64,000 nucleotides of DNA from a virus: positions 48,685-112,684 of the IMG/VR virus record IMGVR_UViG_3300036766_000644. One strand, written 5' to 3'. Numbering within the stretch: the stretch's first letter is position 1; each line of letters opens with the position of its first letter. This document shows, in pieces, positions 3,003 to 55,557 of this stretch. Position numbers and translations under genes: made by a program. A model generated the notes under the pieces. The model had not been told where the DNA came from. It ran no database searches and saw nothing but the letters and a program-made list of their open reading frames with translations.

Positions 3003-3452
3003 TCACTCATCCGACGCAACAGGCGCTGTCCGAGAAGAATCGTACGCCTTACCAACCGCCTGCCCAACCGGCGCCAAAAGCATTCCGCCGCCAATCTGTC
3101 CTGCCATTCCGAGAGGGCCTCCTAGCAGAGATCCTGCGGAGCGGCCAAGCAAATCCCCGACGAGCTCTCCACCACCGGTATCAGGATTAGCGCGGGATTG
3201 AAGAAAAGAACCCATGATGGGCCAGGCCAACGCCGCGGCTATTGCACCGGGGCTCCGAGGGAGCGTCTTGGTGATGAGCCCCTTGCTGGGGTGGAAAAGC
3301 TGCCCTTTTTGAAACTGCTTCAGCGCTTCACGCGGCTGTCCGAGCCCTTGGCGCTGTACCTCTTCGAGGTAGTCGTCCCAGCCGCCAGCGCACTTCACAC
3401 CGAAGGAATGCAGAGCCGCACGGACACCTGCGGATTGCGCCAGGGGTAGCAT
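3003..3452 (-). CDS. hypothetical protein, Gly-rich C-terminus (149 aa)
   Basis: ORF whose ATG overlaps the stop of the upstream beta' C-half gene (TGATG). Confidence 0.55.
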   Translation of the reverse strand: MLPLAQSAGVRAALHSFGVKCAGGWDDYLEEVQRQGLGQPREALKQFQKGQLFHPSKGLITKTLPRSPGAIAAALAWPIMGSFLQSRANPDTGGGELVGDLLGRSAGSLLGGPLGMAGQIGGGMLLAPVGQAVGKAYDSSRTAPVASDE

Positions 3453-5251
3453 CAGTACCTTCCCTCAGGGCCCATACCGAATTCGGACCCATATGCGTAA
3501 GCCGAGACTGGGTGGACGCTGTGGCGATCCGATACTGCGCCAGTGCGAGCCCCCTGTAGGAGACTGTCCTTCAAGTAGCGGTGGGCGAGTCGCGCCATCC
3601 AATCGGGGTGCAGAAGAGGATTGCGGGCCATCGGGCGCATCATGAACTCAACCCGAGGGAGATTCGTCGCAACACTGACGTGGGTGACGCCGTGTGATTT
3701 CAACGTCGCAAGTATCGACGCCGAAAGGGGGGTGCCCGCGGTGAAGTGAAGAACTTCTTTGCCCAGCACGCCACCAGCGGCCTGCGCCAGGGGGACTTCG
3801 TGGCTGCTCCTCCCCGCTGCGTCGCGGTACACGTCGTACGGGAGTACTTCACCTTTTAGGAGTTCAGGATGTGCGTCGGAGTGATCGAGAACCTTGATGT
3901 GGTTGAGATCTGCGCGGGCGACCAGTTCAAGGTGCCGCTTATCGACATTGATTCCTTGACCGGAATAGATGTCATGAAGTGTGTCGACGAGATATTGCCG
4001 CCCCACTCCGAAACCTTTGTGTTGGATGAGCTCATCTGGCTTTGGGATCCCTTCGGAGAGGACATCACCGGCCTCCACCTTCTGGCCCACGGTTACGCGA
4101 GGCATCAAATTCGGGCCTACGTAGTGTTGTACCGTATCTACGTAGATATAGGTACCGCCGTGAGACGCGGGCGCAATCTTTGTGACCGCCCCCGTATGTT
4201 CCGCCAAAGCGGCCTTGTTGATGAAGCTCTGCGGAACCTCGAGGAGCTGTCGGATCCCAGGCATCCCCTGAAGCTTCGATGAGCTCCCCTTCAAGGACCG
4301 CCCACCGTGCTTAGCGCCTAGCGCCATTTGCGTCAGCGGCTCTGAGATCGACTGCGCGGCACGGACACCGACGTTGATACCGATGGCATGCGGGCGCCCA
4401 CGCTCATCTAGGCCCTGGCACTTCCGGCAGATCCCCTCAGGGGCGGCGCAGGACATCGGAGACCGTACGTAGACCGTCTTGACGTTGTCCCGTAGTTTGG
4501 ACGCTACGGCCTTGGTCACCAGGTCGTTGCGGTGGAGCCCCGCCTGGTCCTTCGACAGGTATCGATCGACGATGTTTCCGTCGGAGCTTGCTAGGGCGAT
4601 ACCGTTCAGCGTCCCGCAGTCATCCTGGGTGATGACCAACGGGTACATGTTGTTGGTCATGATCTTCAACATGTCGCCCGGCTCAGAGATGGAAATGGCC
4701 GCCTGTACCGTGGCGTGGCGAACGTCGTTACCCGCGGTCCAGTAGTCCGCGGCGCTGAGCCCTTCGGCATAGGACTTGTGCACCAGCCACGGATGAATTG
4801 CGCCGTGACTCGTCGTGACCGCCACCGGGGAGGTGACCGTCTTCATCAGCTGTTCCATGTTTCCACGGGCTCCGGAGAGAGCCATCGCGGTCATGGTGCC
4901 GGGGTGCTGGGCTGTCTGAGCTTTGAGCGCCGCTTGGGCGTCGAGGATGATCTTCTCTCGTGCGTCCCTAGTAGTAGCGTTCTTCAGCGCCGCGATGGCG
5001 GGGAGCATGATCTTGTCGCGGGCGTGGTACATGGGTGTGATGTCGTCGATTCCGACGGACACCCCCTCCAGCGTCGAGATGTCGTCGCCAAGAGCTTTCA
5101 GCTTGCTGACGATGTCAACGTACGCCGTAGGGTCCTCGTTGGCGAGGTCCAACATCTTCTGCGTGAGCTCCTTCTTGCCCATCGCGCCAGTGATGTGTTG
5201 GTGCGCGGGGAGAAGATCGTTGATCAGGTATTTCCCCAGCGTCTGAGCCAT
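3452..5251 (-). CDS. RNA polymerase beta' subunit, C-terminal half (split beta' homolog, 599 aa)
   Basis: SGARGNMEQLMKTV resembles SGARGS..Q. GVRAAQSISEPLTQMALGAKH resembles the AAQSIGEPGTQLTMRTFH trigger-loop and bridge region. SPMSCAAPEGICRKCQG resembles C..GVCAHCYG. Confidence 0.85.
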   Translation of the reverse strand: MAQTLGKYLINDLLPAHQHITGAMGKKELTQKMLDLANEDPTAYVDIVSKLKALGDDISTLEGVSVGIDDITPMYHARDKIMLPAIAALKNATTRDAREKIILDAQAALKAQTAQHPGTMTAMALSGARGNMEQLMKTVTSPVAVTTSHGAIHPWLVHKSYAEGLSAADYWTAGNDVRHATVQAAISISEPGDMLKIMTNNMYPLVITQDDCGTLNGIALASSDGNIVDRYLSKDQAGLHRNDLVTKAVASKLRDNVKTVYVRSPMSCAAPEGICRKCQGLDERGRPHAIGINVGVRAAQSISEPLTQMALGAKHGGRSLKGSSSKLQGMPGIRQLLEVPQSFINKAALAEHTGAVTKIAPASHGGTYIYVDTVQHYVGPNLMPRVTVGQKVEAGDVLSEGIPKPDELIQHKGFGVGRQYLVDTLHDIYSGQGINVDKRHLELVARADLNHIKVLDHSDAHPELLKGEVLPYDVYRDAAGRSSHEVPLAQAAGGVLGKEVLHFTAGTPLSASILATLKSHGVTHVSVATNLPRVEFMMRPMARNPLLHPDWMARLAHRYLKDSLLQGARTGAVSDRHSVHPVSAYAYGSEFGMGPEGRY

Positions 5252-6286: not shown

Positions 6287-6928
6287 TCAAACGCCCGCTT
6301 GAGGAGTGGTTCCACCGGCGCCTCCTTCGCAGAACATCATCCGGCGTAGATCGTCTGCGTGCTGTTGGTCAGTGAGCGCCATCTGCTCGAGCATCACTTT
6401 GATGGAGAGGTTCTCCCCCGCCATGAGCGATAGGTTACGCAGCTCTTGGATGATCTGCTTCTCAGCCTGAAGCAGGACCATGAAAATCTGGTGGAGGTCG
6501 TTGATGTCCGGGATGGTGCTCACCTTAGGCGTGGGCTCACCACCTAGAGCCGTGATCTTCATCGTGAGGTGGTAGGCGTCTTCACGCTCTTCCCCTGCGT
6601 GCTCCTTGAAGTGGTCGTAGATGACGTCTCGGAAGTGAGCCCGGATCCGGTCACCGTAGTTGATGTACATCATCATCGTGGTGTACTTGAGCTTGAGCAG
6701 CTTCAGGCACTGCGCCACGATCTTTTCCTGAGGGACGGCGAACAGGCCTTCCTCGGGGGAGACGGCCAAGGGATGAACACCCTCAGATGCGGTGGGCTGG
6801 GGGATGGGAACTTCAGCTCCGGCGGCGTCAGACATCTGCGCGTCAGGGGATTGTACTTGCTCCGTAGGAACCTCAATGGCTCCGTCTGACGCGATCTTGT
6901 AGCGCTGCGTGTATACCTTGGTCGTCAC
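6287..6928 (-). CDS. hypothetical protein, possibly ferritin-like four-helix bundle (213 aa)
   Basis: ORF overlapping the beta-beta' stop by 4 nt. Periodic E/H/Q residues (…EHAGEEREDAYH…EKQIIQELRN…LEQMALTDQQHADDLRRM) resemble ferritin or rubrerythrin-like metal ligands. This is a weak call. Confidence 0.55.
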   Translation of the reverse strand: MTTKVYTQRYKIASDGAIEVPTEQVQSPDAQMSDAAGAEVPIPQPTASEGVHPLAVSPEEGLFAVPQEKIVAQCLKLLKLKYTTMMMYINYGDRIRAHFRDVIYDHFKEHAGEEREDAYHLTMKITALGGEPTPKVSTIPDINDLHQIFMVLLQAEKQIIQELRNLSLMAGENLSIKVMLEQMALTDQQHADDLRRMMFCEGGAGGTTPQAGV

Positions 6929-9900
6929 GGGCCCACCTCTACTTTGGTGTTGAGATTTATTTCACCACGCTTGTACGCCGCGTAAGCGTCTGCCTTCGTC
7001 TTGAAGTGGTGCGTTTTGGCGTTGTCCGACCCTACCGCCTTCGTTGCCAAGTGTATCCCTAGCATAGCCTCCATGCGGGGAGCGACCATCAGGCTGTTCT
7101 TCTCTCGGTCGGCGAACAGGAGGTTGGAGAGGGTCAGCCCCTTCACCTCCTGCACAGCGCCTGGGAGGACGGGGACGTGAATCTGGAACGTGTCCCCGTC
7201 GTAGTCGGCGTTCATCCCAAGCTCGATGAAGGGGTTCACCCGAATCGTCTTACCGGCGACAGGGACGGGGTTTGCGCCAACGAAGCCGTAGCGGTGCAGC
7301 GTAGGGGCCCGATTCACCATGACGGGGCGTTCCTTGATCTCCACCATCAAGGCTGTGAGAGCGGCAGGATGCTTCTCCTCTACCATCTCCTTCGAACGAA
7401 CGGCGTTGAACCCCTGGCGCACGAGGCGGGCGATGACGAACTTGCCGTACATCCCCCACAACATGTCGATCGGCAGGCCAATCTCGTCCATGCCCAGAGC
7501 GCCATCGGGAGCGATGGTCCCGCGGCCAGAGACGTCCTGCTGGCGCTTCATGATCTTTTTCTGGAAGAAGCTGCTCTTCGGCGTTGTCTTCCCGGTGATG
7601 TGCTCGAGGAAGCCCTTCACATTGCGCTTCAGGAGCTTCGGGTTGTCCGACTCATGCGTCCCGATGACGGCCCCCACGGCGTTGAACAGATTCTGCCGAA
7701 GCTTGGCGTGTTCATCGGGTGGGAGGATCGGTGACTCAACCTGCCGCTGCAGCGCTTTGTTGTGCAGCATGGCGGCGGCGTAGAGGTAGTTCGCGTCACC
7801 CACGACGAGCTCTGAACCGCCCTTCCCCGCTTGCACTGGGCGCATGATGGGCGGGAGGACCGGGAGCTTGGTCAGCACGTAGGCGTCGCCAGGCTTGAGC
7901 CCCTGCTTGTTCAGCGCGGAGAGAAACTTGAGATGTTTCACCGCGTCGTCCAACTTGACACCACTGCTCTTTTTGATCGATTCTCGAATAGTCTGCATCT
8001 GGCCAGGAACGTCGATGGCGTTCAACTTCTTCTTCACTGCGTCGGCCCCGTGCTGGAACCGGAACAGGTCGAAGTCTTTCGCCGTCATTCCTAGAAGTCG
8101 CCGAGCTGGCTCTGCGAACACAGGGTTTACGACGGACTCGGCCAAGTCGATGTGGCTCCAGCGGGTGCCGTCGGTACCTCCGGTAACCGCCGGGTCGAAC
8201 AACCCACCACGCTCCGCGGCTAGATCTTTGGCGCGGACAAGCTTCTCGTTTTGGATGGCCCCAGAGGACATTCGCATGATGTCCTTGTCCGTGAGAGGCG
8301 ACAGCGTGCTGAGACTCCCTCGAGTGTCCACCTTGACCCCGGCCCCGTGCAGCATGCCGATGAACTTGTCGTAGGCGAACGTCGTCTTCAGCGGAGGCAG
8401 GGGTAGCCCGAGCTGGATGGCCTTCCAGAACTCGTCGTTCTTCTGGCTCTTGATCGCAGCCGTCTCGCGAAGAACGTTGCGGGCGTTGTGCGCTACGAGG
8501 GCGTTGAACTCCATCTTACCGACGGCCTTCGCACCTTCGTCGCCGCCTTTGATGGGCTGCTGATTTACGTCGTACGCCCCAGTACCGCGAGCCGCGAAGT
8601 TGGTCTCGGTGGTCTTGAACAGGCGGAGCACGTACTGCGGCCCGACGAGGATGCCGGGGATCTTCTTGCCCGATACCGGGTCGAACACCGTCTCCTTGTC
8701 CTTGACCCCGTGCTCCTTCATGAGGTCCTTTGTCCACTGCACGTTGTCCCGCCCGGAGAAGTTAGCCACAGCGATCGGTTTACCGATCTTCCTGGCCACT
8801 TTCGCGACACACGTCTCGAGGACTTGAGCCGGGTTGATGCGGGAGATGATGCCTGCGGACGTGTACAGCACGTCCAGGGGTTTACCGCCCTCGTCCTGTA
8901 GCATCTGATGGTCAGGGATGATGCGGGAGACGACGCCCTTGTTTCCGTGGCGTCCCGTGAGCTTGTCGCCTACGCGCATGGGCTCCTTGGTACGCACTGT
9001 GACGAGGACCCGTTTGTCGGTGACGTGAACGTCTGTGACGTCCCCCTCGAAGTCGTGGTCCCAGGTGCGGACGAGCTCACGGTACGGGTTAACGAGCGTC
9101 TTCTTGAAGTTGGCCAGCAGAGTGTCCGACGCGGACAGCTTTCCCTTGGTAACCCCGGCGATCAGGATGTCATGCGGCATGACCTTCATGCCTTTGCGCA
9201 CGACGCCGTTCGCGTCGAGCTTGCGGTACTGGTCCGCGGTGTACTTCGGACCGTAGTACTGGCGGTGCATTTCACGCCCCACGACGGCGTCCCGCTCAAC
9301 CTCCAAAACCTCCTTGTACATGTGCTCCGACGTCAACTTGTCGGCGGCTCCCTCGGAGATGACGACAGCGTCATTCGAGTTCAGCCCGTAGTACGGGATG
9401 TACCCGATGGTCATGTTGCGCCCGAGCGCGAAAGCACCATCGCGGGTGAAGTTGGAATCGGCGAGGCGCTGATTCGCTTCGACGTGATCCCCGGGCTTAA
9501 CGAGGATGTCGTGGTGAAGGTACGTCTTGGATGCGAAGGGAAAGTTGTCCTCGTAGGGTACGCGGATGAGATCTGCTTCGGCTGCGGCCTTCTCGCGCTG
9601 ACGCTCGGAGAGGTAGTCGTCCTGGAACTCGTCCCACGTGTACTCTTCGAGAGACCCAAAGCCCCACTCGGGACCGTGTTTCTGGTACGCCTCCTTCGCA
9701 GCGTCCTTGGAGTCGAAGCCGACCATGCACTTGTCTTCATCGTGCGACCCGTCGCGCTTCTTTTGGCGAACGACGTACACGTGATCGAAGGTACCGTCTT
9801 CCTTCAGGTAGATGTCCACCGTCTCGCCATCATCCCCAACCGTCTTGGGGATGTGCCCGTAGGCGAGAGACATCTTCTTCTCCCACTTCTTGCCCTCAAG

Positions 9901-11736
9901 GGAGACGCCAGAACGAATGTCCCCAGGCTCGAGCTCGAGCTTGAAACACAAGCCCTTGATCGTCTTTTGGCGCTTGACGGCGCCGCCCCTCTTTTCGAAG
10001 GAGTTCTTTTCGAAGACGAAATCCTCGGCGTGCTTCTTCCCGCTTGGGTCGATGTAGATGTACTGCCCGTCGATCCGAACTACCTTCCCCGAAACAGGGG
10101 CGAAAGGAAGCTCCATCAACGCCAGGACCTTCTCCCAGCTCGAGTGCTCCTTACCTTCAGAGTCGCGAATGCCGGATTGAACGAGAGGCGCCTCGCGATG
10201 TACGAGGGGCAGCGCCTGCGTCATGGACTTGCCTCCCATGATGCCGCGGTTCCCCTGCACGGACTCCAAGAAGGGGACAAGGTTTGTCGCCGGGGAGTAG
10301 AGGTGAGAAGCGTCAACGAGGGCGTGCGTGCACGTCGATGCCGGAACCATTTCGACGGTTCCTTTGCGCATCGCAGAGATCATCCCAGACGTCTTCTGGT
10401 TCGGGAACGAGATTACGGCGTTGCCCATCTCCGCCGCGGACAGGAGCGTGTTCTTCCCAGTCTTGAGATCCTTCACCGGGGCGTAGAGGTTGCCGCGCTC
10501 ATCCCTGTGAGCGTACATCGCGGTGCGAATGTCGATGCCCGCTCGGAAAGTCTCCGACGTCCGCACCGGGTCAAGAAGCCCGAAGTGGCTTGAGTGAATC
10601 GTCCGAGCTTCCGCCGGGATTGCCCGCTCATTGGCGATGCCGCCTTCGCCCAGCGAGGTCACGCGAGCTGCGTGGTCGATTGCCTCCATGGGGTTGATGT
10701 GCGTCGGGATCGAGCTCAGCTGAGATCCTGTGAGGAAGCTTCGAATGCCTGCGGAGAACGGAGACGCGGGGAGGATCGTCCGGAGCTCCGTCTTGTGCGT
10801 TGCCCGGCCCTTCACCTTGCTGGCGAGAGCTCGTGCATCCAGGGTGATGCGCTCTTTGATGAAGTCGTCAACGGAGTGGTACGTCTTGAACCGAAGAGCG
10901 TCGCGGTCGTCGGTGTCCTCATTGTTCTTGTAGACGTTGAGGAGGCGCTTCGAAGCAGTCAGCAGGGCGAGGGGCGTCACCGACGCGAACTCGTGCCCGA
11001 GTGTTTCTTTAGTCACCCCAGGGTCCATCGCTGTCGTCGAGTACGCCGCTTTCACAGCCTCCAGCTGTGTCTCAGGGTTCGTCGCCGTTCGCTTGGCAGG
11101 ATGGACCAGTTTCTCGTAAAGCTTGGCGAGGTGTTTGTCGTGCTTTCCGTCGAATTCCGCCTCATTCTTTCCCGCGACATCAGAGCCCCACGCCGTAGCG
11201 ATCTCCCCGTGAGCCGTACCGAGCTTACGGAGTACTGAGTAAAGAGGAATCGCGGTGGTCCCGTACTCGATGTACGGGTGACCCTTTGTAGGGTCCATGG
11301 ACAAGCGGAAGTTCATGCCCTTCGACAAGTTGAAGGCTGCCTCGAGCTCTTCGTTTCCGCGACGCCGAGTGTACACACCTGGCTTGAGGCGCAGCTGGTT
11401 CGAGACGTTGTACTCGTTGCCGTCCAGGATGAAGGTGTGGCGCCCTGTGAAGTAGGGGAGGTTCAGCAGCGTGAAGTTCTTGACCTTCTCGAGCTCCTTG
11501 CCCGCTGCGTCACGAAGGACGACGGTGCCTTTGACCTGCTCGAACAAGGAGCCGCCGCTGAGCAGGGCGTTCTTCTGATCCTTCGGACCGAAGTCTTTCT
11601 CGTGAACCTTTAGATCTGTGAGCTCGATACGCTTATCGCGTAGCGCCAAGGGGAAAGCCGTCTTGAGCGCCTCCAGCGCCTTCGCCCGAATGTTGGTTCG
11701 GCGAGACTCCGGGTCTGTCATCACAGGGGTCAGCAT
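6925..11736 (-). CDS. fused RNA polymerase beta + beta' N-terminal (catalytic) half, 1603 aa
   Basis: Beta hallmarks GRHGNKGVVSRIIP and GKMEFNALVAHNA (cf. GEMEVWALEAYGAA). Beta' hallmarks follow in the same frame: VLPPIMRPV, NRAPTLHRYGFVGANPV and the NADYDGD Mg-binding loop (cf. NADFDGD). Highly diverged from cellular enzymes. Confidence 0.9.
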   Translation of the reverse strand: MLTPVMTDPESRRTNIRAKALEALKTAFPLALRDKRIELTDLKVHEKDFGPKDQKNALLSGGSLFEQVKGTVVLRDAAGKELEKVKNFTLLNLPYFTGRHTFILDGNEYNVSNQLRLKPGVYTRRRGNEELEAAFNLSKGMNFRLSMDPTKGHPYIEYGTTAIPLYSVLRKLGTAHGEIATAWGSDVAGKNEAEFDGKHDKHLAKLYEKLVHPAKRTATNPETQLEAVKAAYSTTAMDPGVTKETLGHEFASVTPLALLTASKRLLNVYKNNEDTDDRDALRFKTYHSVDDFIKERITLDARALASKVKGRATHKTELRTILPASPFSAGIRSFLTGSQLSSIPTHINPMEAIDHAARVTSLGEGGIANERAIPAEARTIHSSHFGLLDPVRTSETFRAGIDIRTAMYAHRDERGNLYAPVKDLKTGKNTLLSAAEMGNAVISFPNQKTSGMISAMRKGTVEMVPASTCTHALVDASHLYSPATNLVPFLESVQGNRGIMGGKSMTQALPLVHREAPLVQSGIRDSEGKEHSSWEKVLALMELPFAPVSGKVVRIDGQYIYIDPSGKKHAEDFVFEKNSFEKRGGAVKRQKTIKGLCFKLELEPGDIRSGVSLEGKKWEKKMSLAYGHIPKTVGDDGETVDIYLKEDGTFDHVYVVRQKKRDGSHDEDKCMVGFDSKDAAKEAYQKHGPEWGFGSLEEYTWDEFQDDYLSERQREKAAAEADLIRVPYEDNFPFASKTYLHHDILVKPGDHVEANQRLADSNFTRDGAFALGRNMTIGYIPYYGLNSNDAVVISEGAADKLTSEHMYKEVLEVERDAVVGREMHRQYYGPKYTADQYRKLDANGVVRKGMKVMPHDILIAGVTKGKLSASDTLLANFKKTLVNPYRELVRTWDHDFEGDVTDVHVTDKRVLVTVRTKEPMRVGDKLTGRHGNKGVVSRIIPDHQMLQDEGGKPLDVLYTSAGIISRINPAQVLETCVAKVARKIGKPIAVANFSGRDNVQWTKDLMKEHGVKDKETVFDPVSGKKIPGILVGPQYVLRLFKTTETNFAARGTGAYDVNQQPIKGGDEGAKAVGKMEFNALVAHNARNVLRETAAIKSQKNDEFWKAIQLGLPLPPLKTTFAYDKFIGMLHGAGVKVDTRGSLSTLSPLTDKDIMRMSSGAIQNEKLVRAKDLAAERGGLFDPAVTGGTDGTRWSHIDLAESVVNPVFAEPARRLLGMTAKDFDLFRFQHGADAVKKKLNAIDVPGQMQTIRESIKKSSGVKLDDAVKHLKFLSALNKQGLKPGDAYVLTKLPVLPPIMRPVQAGKGGSELVVGDANYLYAAAMLHNKALQRQVESPILPPDEHAKLRQNLFNAVGAVIGTHESDNPKLLKRNVKGFLEHITGKTTPKSSFFQKKIMKRQQDVSGRGTIAPDGALGMDEIGLPIDMLWGMYGKFVIARLVRQGFNAVRSKEMVEEKHPAALTALMVEIKERPVMVNRAPTLHRYGFVGANPVPVAGKTIRVNPFIELGMNADYDGDTFQIHVPVLPGAVQEVKGLTLSNLLFADREKNSLMVAPRMEAMLGIHLATKAVGSDNAKTHHFKTKADAYAAYKRGEINLNTKVEVGP

Positions 11737-28800: not shown

Positions 28801-30414
28801 CTACGCGTAGAACTTGAGATCGTTCATCACGATCTTGTGGGCGAACCATCCGAAGAGCTGCGCGTGGAGGCAGTCGTCGGGGAGCTGGGGGCTGTGCCTC
28901 CATACCTTCTTGCCAGACGTCGTCACCTCCTCGTAGATGTTGAGGATGTCCTTGATGGCCTCGCGAGACTCTTCGCGTGGCGGGTACACGGCTGCGCCAC
29001 GCTTCAGGAACATGAGGTAGTTGTCGATGAGAGTCGTACGGTCAGCGAGATAGCGGTCCAGCCCGTTCCACTTGATGGGCTGAGCCAGAGCTCCGTACTG
29101 CACCATTGTCACCCGGTGAGCGCCCAGGCGGGCACGGAGGGTGGCGTTCGGTAGGGCGCCCTCACCAGCGTCTCCGATGACCATGGCGACGTTGTAGCTC
29201 AGGCAGATGCGGGCGATGTCTTCCACGTCCACAACGGCGTTGTTGCCAGGGTAGACGCGGTAGTAGAGCGTGCGGAGCTTCTGCGTGCTGGGGTGGAAGC
29301 CCCAGATCCACAGCACGGTGCGAGAGGTTCCGGTGGTCCCACCACCAGACCAGTCAACACCTGCAACCGTGACTGAACACCCATCCAGGTTCTTGTTCGG
29401 CGTCGGTGAGATTGCGTCGCCTGTGCATAGCGCCTCGAGCTCCTCCAGGGAGATGAGGCGACGCCCTACGGCGTCTGAGACACCGAGGACCTCGTTGCGG
29501 AATCTCGCAGACGAGAACATGTCGTGGTCGCGAAGGATGTCGTCCCAGCGTGCTTGAGCATCCGCTTGGGCGTTTGGCTTCTCCACGGTATTTTTTACGC
29601 AGGACGGGATGTTCAGGGGCATGATCAACTGCGGGATGTGGAACCCCTTCACGGAGTGCTTCCCCGTGTCTTTGTCCACCTTCTGCATGTCGATCCACTG
29701 CCCTGTACGGGGGTTCAGGACGTGGCCACAGTTGAGGCAGATGGGCCCGTGCTTCCCCAGCGACTTCTCGCTCGTGACGATGTTGTACTTGCTGCAGCCC
29801 TCACACTTCATCACCCACTCTGTCTGAGACGACTTGTCCCAGAGGTACTGGATGCTGGCCTCCATCGTCTTGGGCGTGCCCGCGTAGGTCTCGAAGCGGA
29901 ACTCGCTGTTCTTCATGCAGGAATTGATGACCGGGACAACTGAGTCGTACAACATGTCCTGAAACTCGTCGTAGCTCACCCGATCGGCGGAGAAGCCACG
30001 GGCGCGGTCTGCGTCGTCGCAGGCGTAGGTGAAGGCGTTCTCCGAGCCGTTGGTGTAGGATCGGTGCAGCACGCGGTCGGCGTGCTCAGGAGACTGGAAG
30101 TACTTTTTGATGATGGGCGAGTAGGAGAGCGTCTTCCCTACGCGAGTGTTAGAGAAGATCAGCGTTTGTTCTTTTGATGGAGATACGTAGTACTCCTTGA
30201 AGTGTGGCAGGGCCACGCTCTCAGAGATGATGAAGTTGGCCAGTGACGTAGACTTGGCCACCTGTCTCCCGCACATCAGGAGAGTGGACTTGTAGCGCCC
30301 GTTGTAGATGTTCCGGTACATCGGGTAGTCGTCGAGGCTGAACTTGGACCCATCCAGCCAGAGCAACCGCTCAGCGATGTCCGAGAGCTTCTTTGTTTTG
30401 ATCGTCTGTTCCAT
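28801..30414 (-). CDS. terL: terminase large subunit (537 aa)
   Basis: Walker A LMCGRQVAKST. Walker B VSYDEFQDM. C-terminal nuclease region VAGVDWSGGG…IGDAGEG. Confidence 0.9.
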   Translation of the reverse strand: MEQTIKTKKLSDIAERLLWLDGSKFSLDDYPMYRNIYNGRYKSTLLMCGRQVAKSTSLANFIISESVALPHFKEYYVSPSKEQTLIFSNTRVGKTLSYSPIIKKYFQSPEHADRVLHRSYTNGSENAFTYACDDADRARGFSADRVSYDEFQDMLYDSVVPVINSCMKNSEFRFETYAGTPKTMEASIQYLWDKSSQTEWVMKCEGCSKYNIVTSEKSLGKHGPICLNCGHVLNPRTGQWIDMQKVDKDTGKHSVKGFHIPQLIMPLNIPSCVKNTVEKPNAQADAQARWDDILRDHDMFSSARFRNEVLGVSDAVGRRLISLEELEALCTGDAISPTPNKNLDGCSVTVAGVDWSGGGTTGTSRTVLWIWGFHPSTQKLRTLYYRVYPGNNAVVDVEDIARICLSYNVAMVIGDAGEGALPNATLRARLGAHRVTMVQYGALAQPIKWNGLDRYLADRTTLIDNYLMFLKRGAAVYPPREESREAIKDILNIYEEVTTSGKKVWRHSPQLPDDCLHAQLFGWFAHKIVMNDLKFYA

Positions 30415-51347: not shown

Positions 51348-52373
51348 GTGTCAAACGCGAAGATAGCTGAAGTCTACATCAACACGCTGCATTACCACAT
51401 CTTCCCGATACGACGGATCATCGGGGCGGGCACTGAGTCAGCTCGGTGCGACTGCCTCGATGATACGTGCCCCAACATCGGGAAGCATCCGCACATCGCC
51501 TGGTCGAAGGAGGCTGGGCGGCCTGAGCACTGGGAGAACTGGCCGCAAGATGGGTTCGGTATTGCGACAGGATCCAGATCAGGTATCTGGGTGCTCGATG
51601 TGGATCCGAAGAATGGTGGTTTCGAAACGCTGGCTCGCTTGGAGCAGGAGAATACGCCCCTACCCAAGACCATCACCGTCATCACCGGATCAAAGGGGAT
51701 GCACTTCTACTTCAAATATCCTGGCGAACAGTACCGAAACACGGCTGGTGCATTGGGGCCCGGCCTCGATACGCGTGGCGATGGAGGCTACGTGGTCGGG
51801 GCGGGGTCCCTCCACAAGAGTGGACGTAGGTACAACTGGCAGAACGGACCAGGGTCAGCTGAGCTTGCTGCGGCTCCTGAGTGGCTGCTGAAGAAGGTCC
51901 AGCAGCCAGCGCGACGAGTCGCCAGTAGTGGGGCGAACCACGGAGAAGAGAAGCAGGGGATGCACTCTTCAGGGTCACCTCGAGTGGAGACAGAGTTCCT
52001 GCTCGAGGAGATGCTCGCTCCTGAGTGCCAACTCACGCAGTGGATGAGGGACTACCCAAATGAAGTCCCTCGGGAAGTGTGGCGTGGGCTGGCCACGAAC
52101 CTGGCCTGCGCTGTACTGGACCACAAGGACCTCATTGAGACGGCTTGTGCGGCGTTCCACGAGATCTCCGAGGAATACGATGGGTACAAGGAGTCCGAGA
52201 CGGAGAAGGTCTTCCGCGACTCGGTCACTGTAGCTGCGATGTACGGACCTATGAGCTTCGAGCATATGGCCCGTGCAGGGATGCCCGCGGAGTATGCGTA
52301 CCCGTCGGACGCGAAGAACCTGTTGCATGCTGCGCGGTTAGCGTGGAGGGCAGAACAAGCTCGCAAGAGGTGA
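51348..52373 (+). CDS. bifunctional DNA primase/polymerase (Prim-Pol) N-terminal domain protein (341 aa)
   Basis: GIWVLDVDPKNGG and DTRGDGGYVVGAGS match the Prim-Pol signature. CDCLDDTC. GTG start. Confidence 0.75.
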   Translation: MSNAKIAEVYINTLHYHIFPIRRIIGAGTESARCDCLDDTCPNIGKHPHIAWSKEAGRPEHWENWPQDGFGIATGSRSGIWVLDVDPKNGGFETLARLEQENTPLPKTITVITGSKGMHFYFKYPGEQYRNTAGALGPGLDTRGDGGYVVGAGSLHKSGRRYNWQNGPGSAELAAAPEWLLKKVQQPARRVASSGANHGEEKQGMHSSGSPRVETEFLLEEMLAPECQLTQWMRDYPNEVPREVWRGLATNLACAVLDHKDLIETACAAFHEISEEYDGYKESETEKVFRDSVTVAAMYGPMSFEHMARAGMPAEYAYPSDAKNLLHAARLAWRAEQARKR

Positions 52374-52517: not shown

Positions 52518-54437
52518 ATGCCGCTACCAAGTCCCGAAGAAGTACAGGGGATGCTGATCGACTCGGCCTTCGGAAGCGACGCGTTCACGGTCTCGAAGGG
52601 TGAGAAGACGACGTGGATGCTCGAGATGGAAGCCGAGAAGGCGGTCGCCGCTGCGCAAGCGCGACAACAAGCCGGACAGCCTGCGTCCGTGATCCCGAAT
52701 ACACCGCCTAACCCAGACCCTGCGCCAATTCCCATACTCGGGAAGCTGGCCGGGGTCTTGAAGTACTTCACGCGCGGTGATCCCGTTTTAGAGGCGGCCA
52801 CCAAGATACGATTCAAAGACTTCTACGCGGGCGTGCTCACCAAGGGCGTGCTCGTACTCGAGCCTGCGTGTGATGCTGAGTGGGACGCGGCGAAGCCGAT
52901 GGATGTGCCGTACGCTAATCTCAAGCGGGCGGGGCTCCATCGAGGAGGCATACCTCTCGGCATTGATACCCTCGGACAGTGGATCAAGAGCAAGACGTAC
53001 GGTGACTGCATGCCGAACGGGTCGCTGGCGGATGATTACCTGTGCCTGCTGACTCTACTCAAGCTTGATCCTGAGCTCACCGGAGGCAAGCTTGAGTGGA
53101 ACATGATGGACTGCACGATCACAGCGGATCGTGTACGTGTGGACTTCGGCCTCATCATCAGCAACATCCGGATTGCTATCGGCTCTACGTACTCCGTGCC
53201 CTCCACGGGGCGCCGCGGAAACCGCCGCTTCGTGCCCAGCGAGTCCTTCGTGATGCAGGCCGTCGAGGCAATCGCCAAGGAGAACCCGTACCACCCTTCG
53301 AAGGAGTATCTCCAGCTTGGCCCTACGTGGGACGGCACCGACTACATGCTGCTCCTGCTGAAGGCGATTGGTGGGATCAAGGACACCGCTGGCCTCGCAG
53401 GTGAGGCGCTGGACTGGGTGATGAAGACGAACGCCTTGGCGCTGTCGCAGCTCACGAAGACGCTAGTAGGCGCAGTTGCACGGACCATGGACCCAGGCTG
53501 CCAGATGGACACGATGCTGGTGCTGAAGTCGAAGCAGGGCACCAAGAAGTCTTCGTTGTTCAGGGCCATCGCACCAGCCAGGCGCTTCTCGTCAGCGCAC
53601 TTCGACTTCGGGTCGAAGGACTCGCGCATAACGTTCATGCAAAACACTCTCATTGAAGTCGCGGAACTGAGCTCAATGCAGAGGAAGGACATCGGGCTCG
53701 TCAAGGCTGAGATCACGGAACGCAGTGACGACTTTCGTCAGCCTTACGCGAGGTCGATGACGAAGAACCCACGCTGGTGCATCATGGTGGGCTCTACTAA
53801 CGATGACACCTTCTTGAAGGATCAGACGGGGTCACGGCGTTTCTGGGTCATCGTCGTATTGGATGATCACAAGACGGACATCCCGTACGTCGAAAGCATC
53901 ATCCCGCAGGTGTGGGCGCAGGCTTTATTCCTCTACCTCGGGGCGGCGGCATGCCCTACCTGCGCTGCTGCGGCTGACGGGGAAGTACGTTGCCCCGACC
54001 ATCGTTGGTGGCTGAGCCTCGAGGAAGACGAGCTGCGTGAGAAGTACAACGAGCAGTTCACCGAGCAGGAGCCGTACGTCGACATGGTGAAGGACTGGCT
54101 CCGGAATACCCTCTCGGACAAGAAGACCGCGAAGCAGGGGCTACACACCGCCCACAAGAACACCGACGCCCTCAAGATTCACGAGGTGCTGGAAGCCGTG
54201 GCTAACCTGCCCCCTGAAAAATGTGGGGATCCGGGCCACCAAAGGCGCATGGCTTACGCCCTAAAACAAAACGGCTACATCAAGAAACACACGGAAGACG
54301 GCAATGTGTGGATTAGTCCAGGTATGCAGAACAGACCTGATCTTTCCATCGTACGCCCCGTAGATCCGCCTAAGACAGTTAAAAAAGAAGAAACGACTCC
54401 TGAGGAACTAGAGGCGTTAAAAAAAGCTAAAACGTGA
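52518..54437 (+). CDS. primase-associated P-loop NTPase (VirE / P4-primase C-terminal-like) (639 aa)
   Basis: Walker-A-like LKSKQGTKKSSL. Walker-B/arginine region GSRRFWVIVVLDD. Follows the Prim-Pol gene, as in P4/VirE-type replication modules. Confidence 0.7.
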   Translation: MPLPSPEEVQGMLIDSAFGSDAFTVSKGEKTTWMLEMEAEKAVAAAQARQQAGQPASVIPNTPPNPDPAPIPILGKLAGVLKYFTRGDPVLEAATKIRFKDFYAGVLTKGVLVLEPACDAEWDAAKPMDVPYANLKRAGLHRGGIPLGIDTLGQWIKSKTYGDCMPNGSLADDYLCLLTLLKLDPELTGGKLEWNMMDCTITADRVRVDFGLIISNIRIAIGSTYSVPSTGRRGNRRFVPSESFVMQAVEAIAKENPYHPSKEYLQLGPTWDGTDYMLLLLKAIGGIKDTAGLAGEALDWVMKTNALALSQLTKTLVGAVARTMDPGCQMDTMLVLKSKQGTKKSSLFRAIAPARRFSSAHFDFGSKDSRITFMQNTLIEVAELSSMQRKDIGLVKAEITERSDDFRQPYARSMTKNPRWCIMVGSTNDDTFLKDQTGSRRFWVIVVLDDHKTDIPYVESIIPQVWAQALFLYLGAAACPTCAAAADGEVRCPDHRWWLSLEEDELREKYNEQFTEQEPYVDMVKDWLRNTLSDKKTAKQGLHTAHKNTDALKIHEVLEAVANLPPEKCGDPGHQRRMAYALKQNGYIKKHTEDGNVWISPGMQNRPDLSIVRPVDPPKTVKKEETTPEELEALKKAKT

Positions 54438-54439
54438 AG

Positions 54440-54765
54440 GCTGAACCCCCGGCTGAACCCAAGGACGGTTTTCATGGGTACAGCCGTAAGGCGATGAACC
54501 GATTCATCTTTTAGTCAAAAAAAGGCCAAACTGAACCACTGAACCCACTGGACCCTAAAGTTGAAGACTTGGCTGTGATGTACATAACGGCGAGTCACTC
54601 ATAATATGCAAGCAAGGCTCATGCCAAAAAGAGGTCATTTAGCTGAGGTGTCAAACAGAATCTCCTATTTACTATTCAGGATGGTTCATGGGTTCAGTTT
54701 GGGGTCGGATTTAAAAGATTTCAAGTAGTTATGGCTGAACCCATCTTGCGAAGTGCTGAACCCTC
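54440..54765. repeat. iteron cluster (CTGAACCC in both orientations, at least 6 copies) flanking an AT-rich stretch. Candidate replication origin or regulatory region.
   Basis: CTGAACCC at 54441, 54453, 54539, 54735 and 54756. GGGTTCAG at 54690. CTGAACCA and CTGGACCC variants. AT-rich 54560-54730. Located right after the primase/helicase gene. Confidence 0.55.
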
Positions 54766-54913
54766 CCTTGCCCACACGTTCCTACTCCCGAGTCGTGCTG
54801 TTTCGCCTTCCGGCACCATGGTCTCGTCCTGGAACCCGTGGTCGACGACCTGACTCGAGGACGGGCACGCAACCCACTCAGGGTGTCCCCCAGGGCCCCT
54901 AGAAAGCGTTCCG

Positions 54914-55195
54914 ATGAAGGCCGAGCTCCGGCTGTTGAAGCTCCGAAAAGAAAAGCACGACGCCATCGCGGCGCTCGCCACGAAGTACGACAAACGCATC
55001 GCCACGCTTCTCAAGTCGCTCGATGGAAAATGTAAGCATCCTGTAGAAGTCCAGCAGCCGTTGGCGTGGCTCTGGGATAGTGGGTACGGCCACCAGAAGC
55101 AGGTCGCAGGCATCACCTGCGGTGCCTGCGGTAAGCAGAAGCTCTGGACCGGCTCAACGCTTTGGTACTTCCCCGGCGAGTGTGAGCACACCTGA
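54914..55195 (+). CDS. hypothetical protein with CxxC…CxxC (93 aa)
   Basis: ORF. Confidence 0.5.
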   Translation: MKAELRLLKLRKEKHDAIAALATKYDKRIATLLKSLDGKCKHPVEVQQPLAWLWDSGYGHQKQVAGITCGACGKQKLWTGSTLWYFPGECEHT

Positions 55196-55557
55196 TGGTC
55201 CAGAAATCCACAGTCGTTCACGATTCCGTCATGGAAGAGTTCACACCGACCTGCAGGCACTGTAAGAAGACGGCCGACGAGCACATGGACGGAACCGAGG
55301 ACGCCACAGGCAAGTGCCTCTTCGAAGCAACGACGTGGGAAGAGATGTCTCACGACGAATGGACGGAGTGGCGCAAGAGCTTGTGGGCTGAGCTCTCTGC
55401 TGATTTCATCCGCGACCAGCTTCGTTCGAACGGAATAGCCTCAAGGATCAAGACGGACCTGATGGTTTACGGTAACGCGTTCGTCGAGGCCACGCCTGCT
55501 TCTGACGGAATCAAGGTTACGCGCGTTGAGCCGTGGCTCGTCGACGAGAAGAAGTGA
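55195..55557 (+). CDS. hypothetical protein (120 aa)
   Basis: TGATG-coupled. Confidence 0.5.
   Translation: MVQKSTVVHDSVMEEFTPTCRHCKKTADEHMDGTEDATGKCLFEATTWEEMSHDEWTEWRKSLWAELSADFIRDQLRSNGIASRIKTDLMVYGNAFVEATPASDGIKVTRVEPWLVDEKK

Follow-up and report, generated by a model that had tools for sequence, protein, structure and literature searches.

The region between positions 54441 and 54762 of the phage DNA that we analysed (a stretch of 64 kb, hereafter the window) is probably an iteron-type origin of replication of the SaPI/P4 type, which operates with a self-loading initiator-helicase. An origin of the iteron type, or else a repressor-binding region, had been proposed for this region in a preliminary description of the sequence, and three observations now strengthen the first of these readings: the helicase encoded just upstream is a homologue of SaPI1 Rep, its C-terminus is predicted to fold as a winged helix, and the architecture of the region can be followed over 13 related loci, with repeat words that switch between genomes. 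We infer that the helicase reads the repeats, that the AT-rich centre of the region melts, and that replication starts there.

The short repeats found 3' of the helicase gene are real and non-random, and what the preliminary description stated as fact proved correct throughout. The heptamer CTGAACC occurs 17 times in the window: seven exact copies are grouped in 54441–54762 (323 bp), six of them on the forward strand (54441, 54453, 54531, 54539, 54735 and 54756) and one on the reverse strand (54691), and the ten others are in the remaining 63.6 kb. A motif equally common elsewhere would, according to the preliminary description, have refuted the proposal, and this is not what is found: no other 340-bp segment of the 64 kb contains more than one copy, so that there is a single cluster. 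The Poisson probability of such clustering is about 1e-15 per 340-bp segment; once all the segments are allowed for, it rises to about 3e-13. The description had also counted at least six copies of the repeat or of its complement; the octamer CTGAACCC is indeed present eight times in the window, both strands considered, and six of these copies are within 54441–54763. The near-variants are where they had been placed: CTGTACC at 54477 (reverse strand), ATGAACC at 54494 (forward) and 54683 (reverse), and CTGGACC at 54548 (forward). The cluster thus consists of seven exact and four to five one-mismatch copies in 323 bp; a weaker TATTCAG is at 54673. As for the shorter word TGAACC, 9 of the 46 copies in the window are inside the repeat region.

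The cluster lies, as had been described, between the helicase (VapE domain) and the next ORF: the first repeat is 4 nt past the stop codon of the helicase (54435–54437), and about 150 nt separate the end of the cluster from the start of the next ORF at 54914. The left outer set (54441..54500) begins with two forward copies of CTGAACC 12 bp apart, at 54441 and 54453, followed by two degenerate copies, GGTACAG, inverted, at 54477–54483 and ATGAACC, forward, at 54494–54500. The left inner array (54531..54554, forward) consists of CTGAACC at 54531, CTGAACC at 54539 and CTGGACC at 54548, with a spacing of 8–9 bp. It is mirrored by the right inner array (54673..54697, reverse), which consists of TATTCAG at 54673, GGTTCAT at 54683 and GGTTCAG at 54691. 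These two inner arrays form an inverted repeat of 20 nt (54526–54545 and 54683–54702, 90% complementary, 137 nt apart). Between them is the AT-rich centre (54555..54672, about 120 bp), the proposed unwinding region. Further 3' are a candidate IHF site on the forward strand (54719..54731, TTTCAAGTAGTTA), which has one mismatch to WATCAANNNNTTR and may be a DNA-bending site, and the right outer pair (54735..54762), two forward copies of CTGAACC at 54735 and 54756, 21 bp apart. Last, a conserved leader (54766..54913, forward strand) connects the repeats to the next gene; it includes GCCTTCCGGCAC at 54805–54816, followed by CATGG. The orientation pattern, in which tandem copies converge on the AT-rich centre, was absent from the preliminary description.

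The opposed triple arrays (54531–54554, forward, and 54673–54697, reverse) flank the DNA that is richest in AT in the window. The observation that the repeats bracket the most AT-rich segment holds on three scales, since the lowest GC content of the 64 kb is found here per 100 bp (38%, 54628–54727), per 170 bp (40.6%, 54578–54747) and per 300 bp (43.3%, 54461–54760), for an overall value of about 60% in the window. The low-GC zone starts within the helicase gene, because the last 30 codons or so of the latter are AT-rich. This C-terminal tail of the helicase (54335–54437, residues ~607–639; about 43–47% GC) is poorly conserved, and residues 607–627 are predicted to be disordered (pLDDT below 50).

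The proposed initiator is a VapE-family, SF3-type helicase of 639 amino acids, encoded on the forward strand (52518..54437), whose VapE-like domain is recognized by PF05272 with an E-value of 1e-53. The gene directly upstream (51348..52373, forward strand) encodes a Prim-Pol (Pfam PF09250, E 2e-37; DNA primase according to PHROG) and is the first gene of a primase–helicase–origin module. The gene of a Prim-Pol is also immediately 5' of that of the helicase in the 10 relatives, out of 10, that were fetched with their gene context.

The helicase of the window is a homologue of SaPI1 Rep in both sequence and fold. Among solved structures, the profile of the helicase family has a match in a single family only, that of SaPI1 Rep1 bound to DNA (PDB 7pds, E 3e-33). 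The AlphaFold model of the helicase has a mean pLDDT of 86.6, and its best structural match according to Foldseek is 7pds again (E 1.6e-19, target-normalised TM 0.70, about 484 alignment columns), followed by the NrS-1 helicase, MCM proteins and poxvirus E5. A C-terminal winged helix is predicted for residues ~554–599 (window ~54177–54314), with three helices followed by a beta hairpin. Nearly all the matches of the 60 C-terminal residues are to winged-helix DNA-binding domains, that of 7pds_A among them; the scores are modest, as expected for a domain of 60 residues, yet consistent. The predicted recognition helix spans residues 572–584 and contains Q575, R576 and R577.

SaPI Rep is a helicase that is also the initiator: it needs no ATP to bind and melt the origin, and it is self-loading (PMC9371898). 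Its C-terminal winged helix reads iterons of 5–6 nt, of which 6–12 are present directly 3' of rep, and the centre of the origin is AT-rich and flanked on both sides by two or more iterons, those on one side pointing the opposite way to those on the other (PMC9371898). In SCCmec, the helicase Cch2 binds repeats in the gap that is 3' of its own gene (PMC7581432). The order primase–helicase–origin is common to these systems (SaPI Rep, meaning SaPI1 Rep1 or SaPI5 PriRep5, 7pds, and SCCmec Cch2) and to the window. SaPI Rep is the closest solved homologue of our helicase in sequence and fold, and a C-terminal winged helix is present in the former and predicted in the latter; in both cases the repeats come right after the helicase stop codon and are opposed on each side of an AT-rich centre, and the 11–12 repeats of the window are within the published range of 6–12 (PMC9371898; PMC7581432). 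However, the identity to SaPI Rep over the structural alignment is only about 20%, and the window helicase is longer (639 residues against 477) and has a long additional stretch at its N-terminus. The repeat words of the window are of 7–9 bp, arranged over 320 bp in five parts (2 + 3 / centre / 3 + 2), conserved non-repeat blocks are present in addition, and the primase is a Prim-Pol. The host replicon also differs, being a large high-GC phage that encodes its own RNA polymerase rather than a small Gram-positive satellite.

The resemblance to P4 is one of layout. In the annotated P4 record, crr is directly 3' of the alpha gene, and the type-1 iterons of P4, GGTGAACAG, form tandem sets at 9–11 bp with inverted copies around AT-rich DNA. 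The architecture of these octamer iterons (TGTTCACC) is similar to that of the window, and their core GGTGAACA is the same in two of the relatives (L001 and L005), whereas it differs from the CTGAACC of the window at two positions. P4 needs two cis regions, ori and crr, which are 4.5 kb apart, whereas the window has one cluster within the 64 kb that it covers of a genome of roughly 190 kb. Homology of the helicase to P4 alpha was considered and found no support (BLASTP E 0.2; hhalign probability of 7.9% for the C-terminus), the only resemblance of alpha to the helicase C-terminus being a 16-residue stretch, LK..G..K[KR]HT..G. Since alpha is not detectably homologous, we regard P4 as a functional analogue, and SaPI Rep as both analogue and homologue. 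Iteron plasmids of the pSC101, R6K, RK2 and P1 type are comparable in that the sites of the initiator are beside an AT-rich unwinding element, and an IHF site is frequently present as well. These plasmids have direct repeats of 17–22 bp and Rep_3-type initiators with two winged helices, and they recruit the DnaB of the host; in the window, on the contrary, the words are of 7–9 bp at a spacing of 8–9 bp, the arrays are opposed, and the proposed reader is the helicase itself. The window ORFs scanned beside the region gave no match to the Rep_3 family.

The comparison with related genomes supports the same reading. A protein search returned about 26 helicases (43–69% identity), encoded on metagenomic contigs that reach 196 kb in length. 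We considered 13 related loci, 10 obtained by exact protein look-up, two (L013 and L015) by a metagenome scan and one (L047) by a scan of IMG/VR with a conserved 15-mer that is described below; their helicases are 51–69% identical to that of the window where this was measured. All 13 have a non-coding gap of 460–670 bp directly 3' of the helicase stop codon. The layout, read from an alignment of 11 loci (A3) and from the raw sequences, is the same in most relatives: two forward repeats, three forward repeats in tandem, a conserved AT-rich core, then three inverted repeats and again two forward ones. The left outer forward pair is at the same place, and made of the genome's own word, in L001, L002, L004, L005 and L006; homologous triple arrays, forward (as judged by eye) and inverted, are present in most relatives, as is, by eye, a right outer pair with a separation of about 21 bp. 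The first gene 3' of the gap varies (it encodes a DUF4031 protein, a cysteine-rich protein of 62 residues, a 93-residue protein with a CxxC motif or a 239-residue protein), which implies that the non-coding gap travels with the helicase and that it is a synteny breakpoint. This first gene is at 54914–55195 in the window, 7377–7601 in L001, 7447–7635 in L002 and 7486–8205 in L009. In the window, it is one of two small ORFs without family matches, which are followed by the genes of a RuvC-like resolvase and of a class II ribonucleotide reductase.

Of the new points, the most useful is that the relatives form a series of switching repeat words which is tied to one residue of the helicase helix. 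To avoid any bias, the word of each of 14 loci was defined as the most frequent 7-mer in the 400 bp past the helicase stop codon. It is CTGAACC in the window, L004, L006, L007 and L009, GTGAACC in L008, GTGAACA in L001 and L005, TGAACAC in L047, parts of CTGAC[G/T]ACC in L002, L003 and L013, and GTGAAGG in L015. In 13 of the 14 loci the genome's own word is present in 3–9 copies in these 400 bp; outside, there are 0–3 copies in the 3–11 kb available for the relatives, and 10 copies in 63.6 kb for the window. L010 has no clear top word, its best one having two copies in the 400 bp. From one genome to another, the word switches at every position of the layout together, and this concerted change therefore suggests that a single trans-acting reader, whose specificity has diverged, recognizes all the sites.

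The helicase C-terminal domain is well conserved, and residue 576, located between the invariant Q575 and R577, varies. This residue is R or K in six genomes whose word ends in GAACC, A or S in three genomes with GAACACC, and M in three genomes with GAC[G/T]ACC; it is N in two genomes, which have different words. On a neighbour-joining tree built from the rest of the helicase, the R/K genomes are scattered, the M genomes form a clade that encloses the sampled A/S genomes (L001 and L005), and the N genomes group apart in a clade of their own. The correlation between residue and word thus amounts to about three independent switches on the tree, and is therefore no proof; comparison of these sequences is nevertheless suggestive of residue 576 tracking the repeat word. 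The relatives constitute a natural specificity series that could be used for decoding how these winged helices read DNA, or for building orthogonal replicons.

Regarding the mechanism, we propose that the VapE-family helicase would bind the repeats of 7–9 bp through its C-terminal winged-helix domain, with two helicase assemblies on the inner triple arrays, which are turned towards each other with about 120 bp of AT-rich DNA between them. The outer pairs of repeats would be added binding sites, and a bend at the IHF-like site may fold them onto the core. The AT-rich centre would then melt, the helicase would load itself onto the single strands, and the adjacent Prim-Pol would prime synthesis. 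The IHF consensus of Craig and Nash is said to be WATCAANNNNTTR. This sequence is found exactly at 6 of the 14 loci (L001, L002, L003, L004, L005 and L009), 237–346 nt past the helicase stop codon, where it always separates the right inner array from the right outer pair, and the 187 kb of sequence examined contain no further exact match; the one-mismatch copy of the window is at the corresponding position. A bend at that position would bring the outer pair onto the core.

The GC skew is of little help in this respect. The preliminary description had expected an inflection at the origin. The skew of the window is strongly positive (0.07–0.19) over about 15 kb, from ~38 to 53 kb, and past 54 kb it is close to zero or negative, so that the cumulative curve peaks at about 54–57 kb. 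A plateau and a turn are therefore observed where expected, but the extremum is a maximum and not the minimum of bacterial origins. The boundary coincides with the repeat region, and genes are on the forward strand on both sides of it. In the relatives, no consistent change in skew was seen between the 5 kb before and the 5 kb after the gap. Considering that the polarity is wrong and that the change is absent in the relatives, the skew neither supports nor refutes an origin.

An alternative is that the repeats are operators, maybe for the autoregulation of the helicase, of a promoter located in the gap and serving the next genes, in which case any origin role would be nil or secondary. We consider this rather improbable. 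It is true that the gap divides two co-oriented gene blocks of differing GC skew, and that the leader, which separates the repeats from the next start codon, contains a block, GCC..CCGGC followed by GG and by TGC a few bases on (54805–54826 in the window), which is invariant in the 11 aligned loci. Since the phage has its own RNA polymerase, its promoters would be invisible to a sigma-70 scan, and unrecognised promoters could lie in the gap. However, the repeat word is clustered at a single locus within 64 kb, 11–12 sites over 320 bp are many for an operator, the gene downstream varies whereas the gap stays with the helicase, and opposed arrays around an AT-rich core, after a SaPI-Rep-like helicase, are the signature of a helicase-initiator origin. 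Transcription control may exist alongside origin function: the leader 54766–54913, with its GCC..CCGGC block, is possibly a promoter for the phage polymerase or a leader for the next genes. In L001, L004 and L005, a near-copy of the 3' flank of this block, CTACATGG(G)TCC, is found about 48 bp upstream of GCC..CCGGC. The idea that GCCTTCCGGCAC is a repeated promoter motif was discarded, as it is unique in the window, and folding of the downstream block with RNAalifold gave only a consensus hairpin of 3 bp, with no covariation.

The gap contains other conserved blocks that are not repeats. In the relatives, TTTCGAAACTTCT is conserved beside the left inner array, AATCAAAGGGTTAG between the right inner array and the right outer pair, and GCCTTCCGGCA.CATGGG 3' of the repeats; GCCTTCCGGC is strongly conserved in all of them. 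The centre contains, in most relatives, a short hairpin of the GTGGCT-loop-AGCCAC type, with a few compensatory changes, followed by CACATATGGTCATTTT. In eight relative loci (seven distinct contigs) the 15-mer CCACACATATGGTCA, with the hairpin just before it, is identical and located in the centre of the gap: L001 (7066–7080), L003 (6076–6090), L005 (7034–7048), L006 (7119–7133), L010 (7172–7186), L013 (2560–2574), L015 (3386–3400) and L047 (on the reverse strand). Its conservation is far above that of the flanking DNA, although the helicases of the carriers are only 51–69% identical to that of the window. The scan of IMG/VR with this 15-mer gave 23 matches, two of which have flanking context (L047, which was new, and L006 again); the others look like chance. 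The 15-mer is absent from L002, L004, L007, L008, L009 and from the window, which is also devoid of the hairpin; the AT-rich centre of the window contains only weak versions of the conserved blocks of the relatives, GTTGAAGACTT (54565–54575) and GGTCATTTAGC (54633–54643).

Blocks such as CCACACATATGGTCA and GCCTTCCGGC fall outside a simple iteron model, which does not explain them. They could be accommodated by a composite origin, in which the iterons would be combined with a second signal made of the hairpin and the 15-mer, serving either as a dedicated priming or loading site for the Prim-Pol or as a promoter for the phage RNA polymerase; the window would have replaced this element. We find this proposal unlikely. 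If it were true, the design would be one that has not been described for helicase-initiator replicons, and, if this signal were a promoter, transcription would be coupled to origin firing.

The conserved centre could also be thought to encode a small non-coding RNA, acting as a primer or a regulator, with the repeats as flanking regulatory or processing elements. The hairpin, which is followed by CACATATGGTCATTTT and shows a few compensatory changes in most relatives, and the 15-mer that is identical in eight loci (seven contigs) speak in its favour, but a conserved hairpin is equally expected of single-stranded origin DNA, and the window has neither of the two elements. At gathering thresholds, no Rfam 15 family is matched anywhere in the window, and accepting E-values up to 5 adds only a single, chance-level match (E 0.92) between 54300 and 55000. 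With RNAalifold, the centre forms five pairs, for −1.2 kcal/mol, with a positive, hence unfavourable, covariation term. No promoter- or terminator-like signals bracket the centre, the sigma-70 scan having found none. All this makes an RNA very doubtful.

Repeated short boxes occur at some pac and parS sites, and a 20-nt inverted repeat flanking 137 bp might evoke the ends of a small insertion; a packaging (pac/cos), partition or mobile-element feature is nevertheless hardly credible here, as the terminase gene is 24 kb away (28801–30414), no partition genes are among those scanned beside the region, and the putative element has no second copy in the window and recurs in the relatives with the same architecture, at the same locus and with genome-specific words, unlike a mobile insertion.

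The possibility that the region encodes a small protein was also discarded. There is an ORF of 40 residues at 54606–54728 and one of 210 residues on the reverse strand at 54721–55353, neither of which has family matches. The relatives are alike in all six frames, so that the conservation is at the DNA level, with no frame-specific coding signal.

The origin type proposed here is not a new principle. It extends to large high-GC phages the combination of a self-loading helicase-initiator with iterons that is known in small staphylococcal satellites and in P4, and it provides a concrete, testable candidate origin in a group of uncultivated phages (a clade with sizes of about 180–196 kb) that encode their own multisubunit RNA polymerase. 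Searches by megablast, blastn and tblastn found no isolate of this clade and no close relative of it in GenBank: the region has no DNA relatives among GenBank phages (megablast, blastn), and the matches of the helicase in tblastn are all below 33% identity. The scan of IMG/VR with a single protein found no relative either. A scan of a genome collection returned only distant relatives (26–29%) in two MAGs, which therefore give no clue about the host.

The phage itself has a genome of about 190 kb with 60% GC and its own multisubunit RNA polymerase. Besides the fused beta/beta'-like polymerase, the window encodes a family A DNA polymerase, an SNF2 helicase, a reverse transcriptase and the large terminase (28801–30414; 24 kb from the repeats); no tRNA or tmRNA was found. 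A protein of 1603 residues (6925–11736, reverse strand) carries beta- and beta'-type domains and an inserted domain that resembles inorganic pyrophosphatase (PF18823), and another of 599 residues (3452–5251, reverse strand) contains Rpb1 domain 5, which suggests that with these two proteins the phage encodes a multisubunit RNA polymerase in which the fusion is unusual. The reverse transcriptase ORF (37160–38356, forward strand; RVT_1, E 6e-15) is located within a block of small early-type genes; it could be part of a diversity-generating retroelement, or else have a role in defence or counter-defence. Last, we note that in L010 a protein of the dATP/dGTP pyrophosphohydrolase family (PF04447) is encoded a few kb 5' of the Prim-Pol gene, at 441–1076; this family is associated with phages that substitute 2-aminoadenine for adenine.
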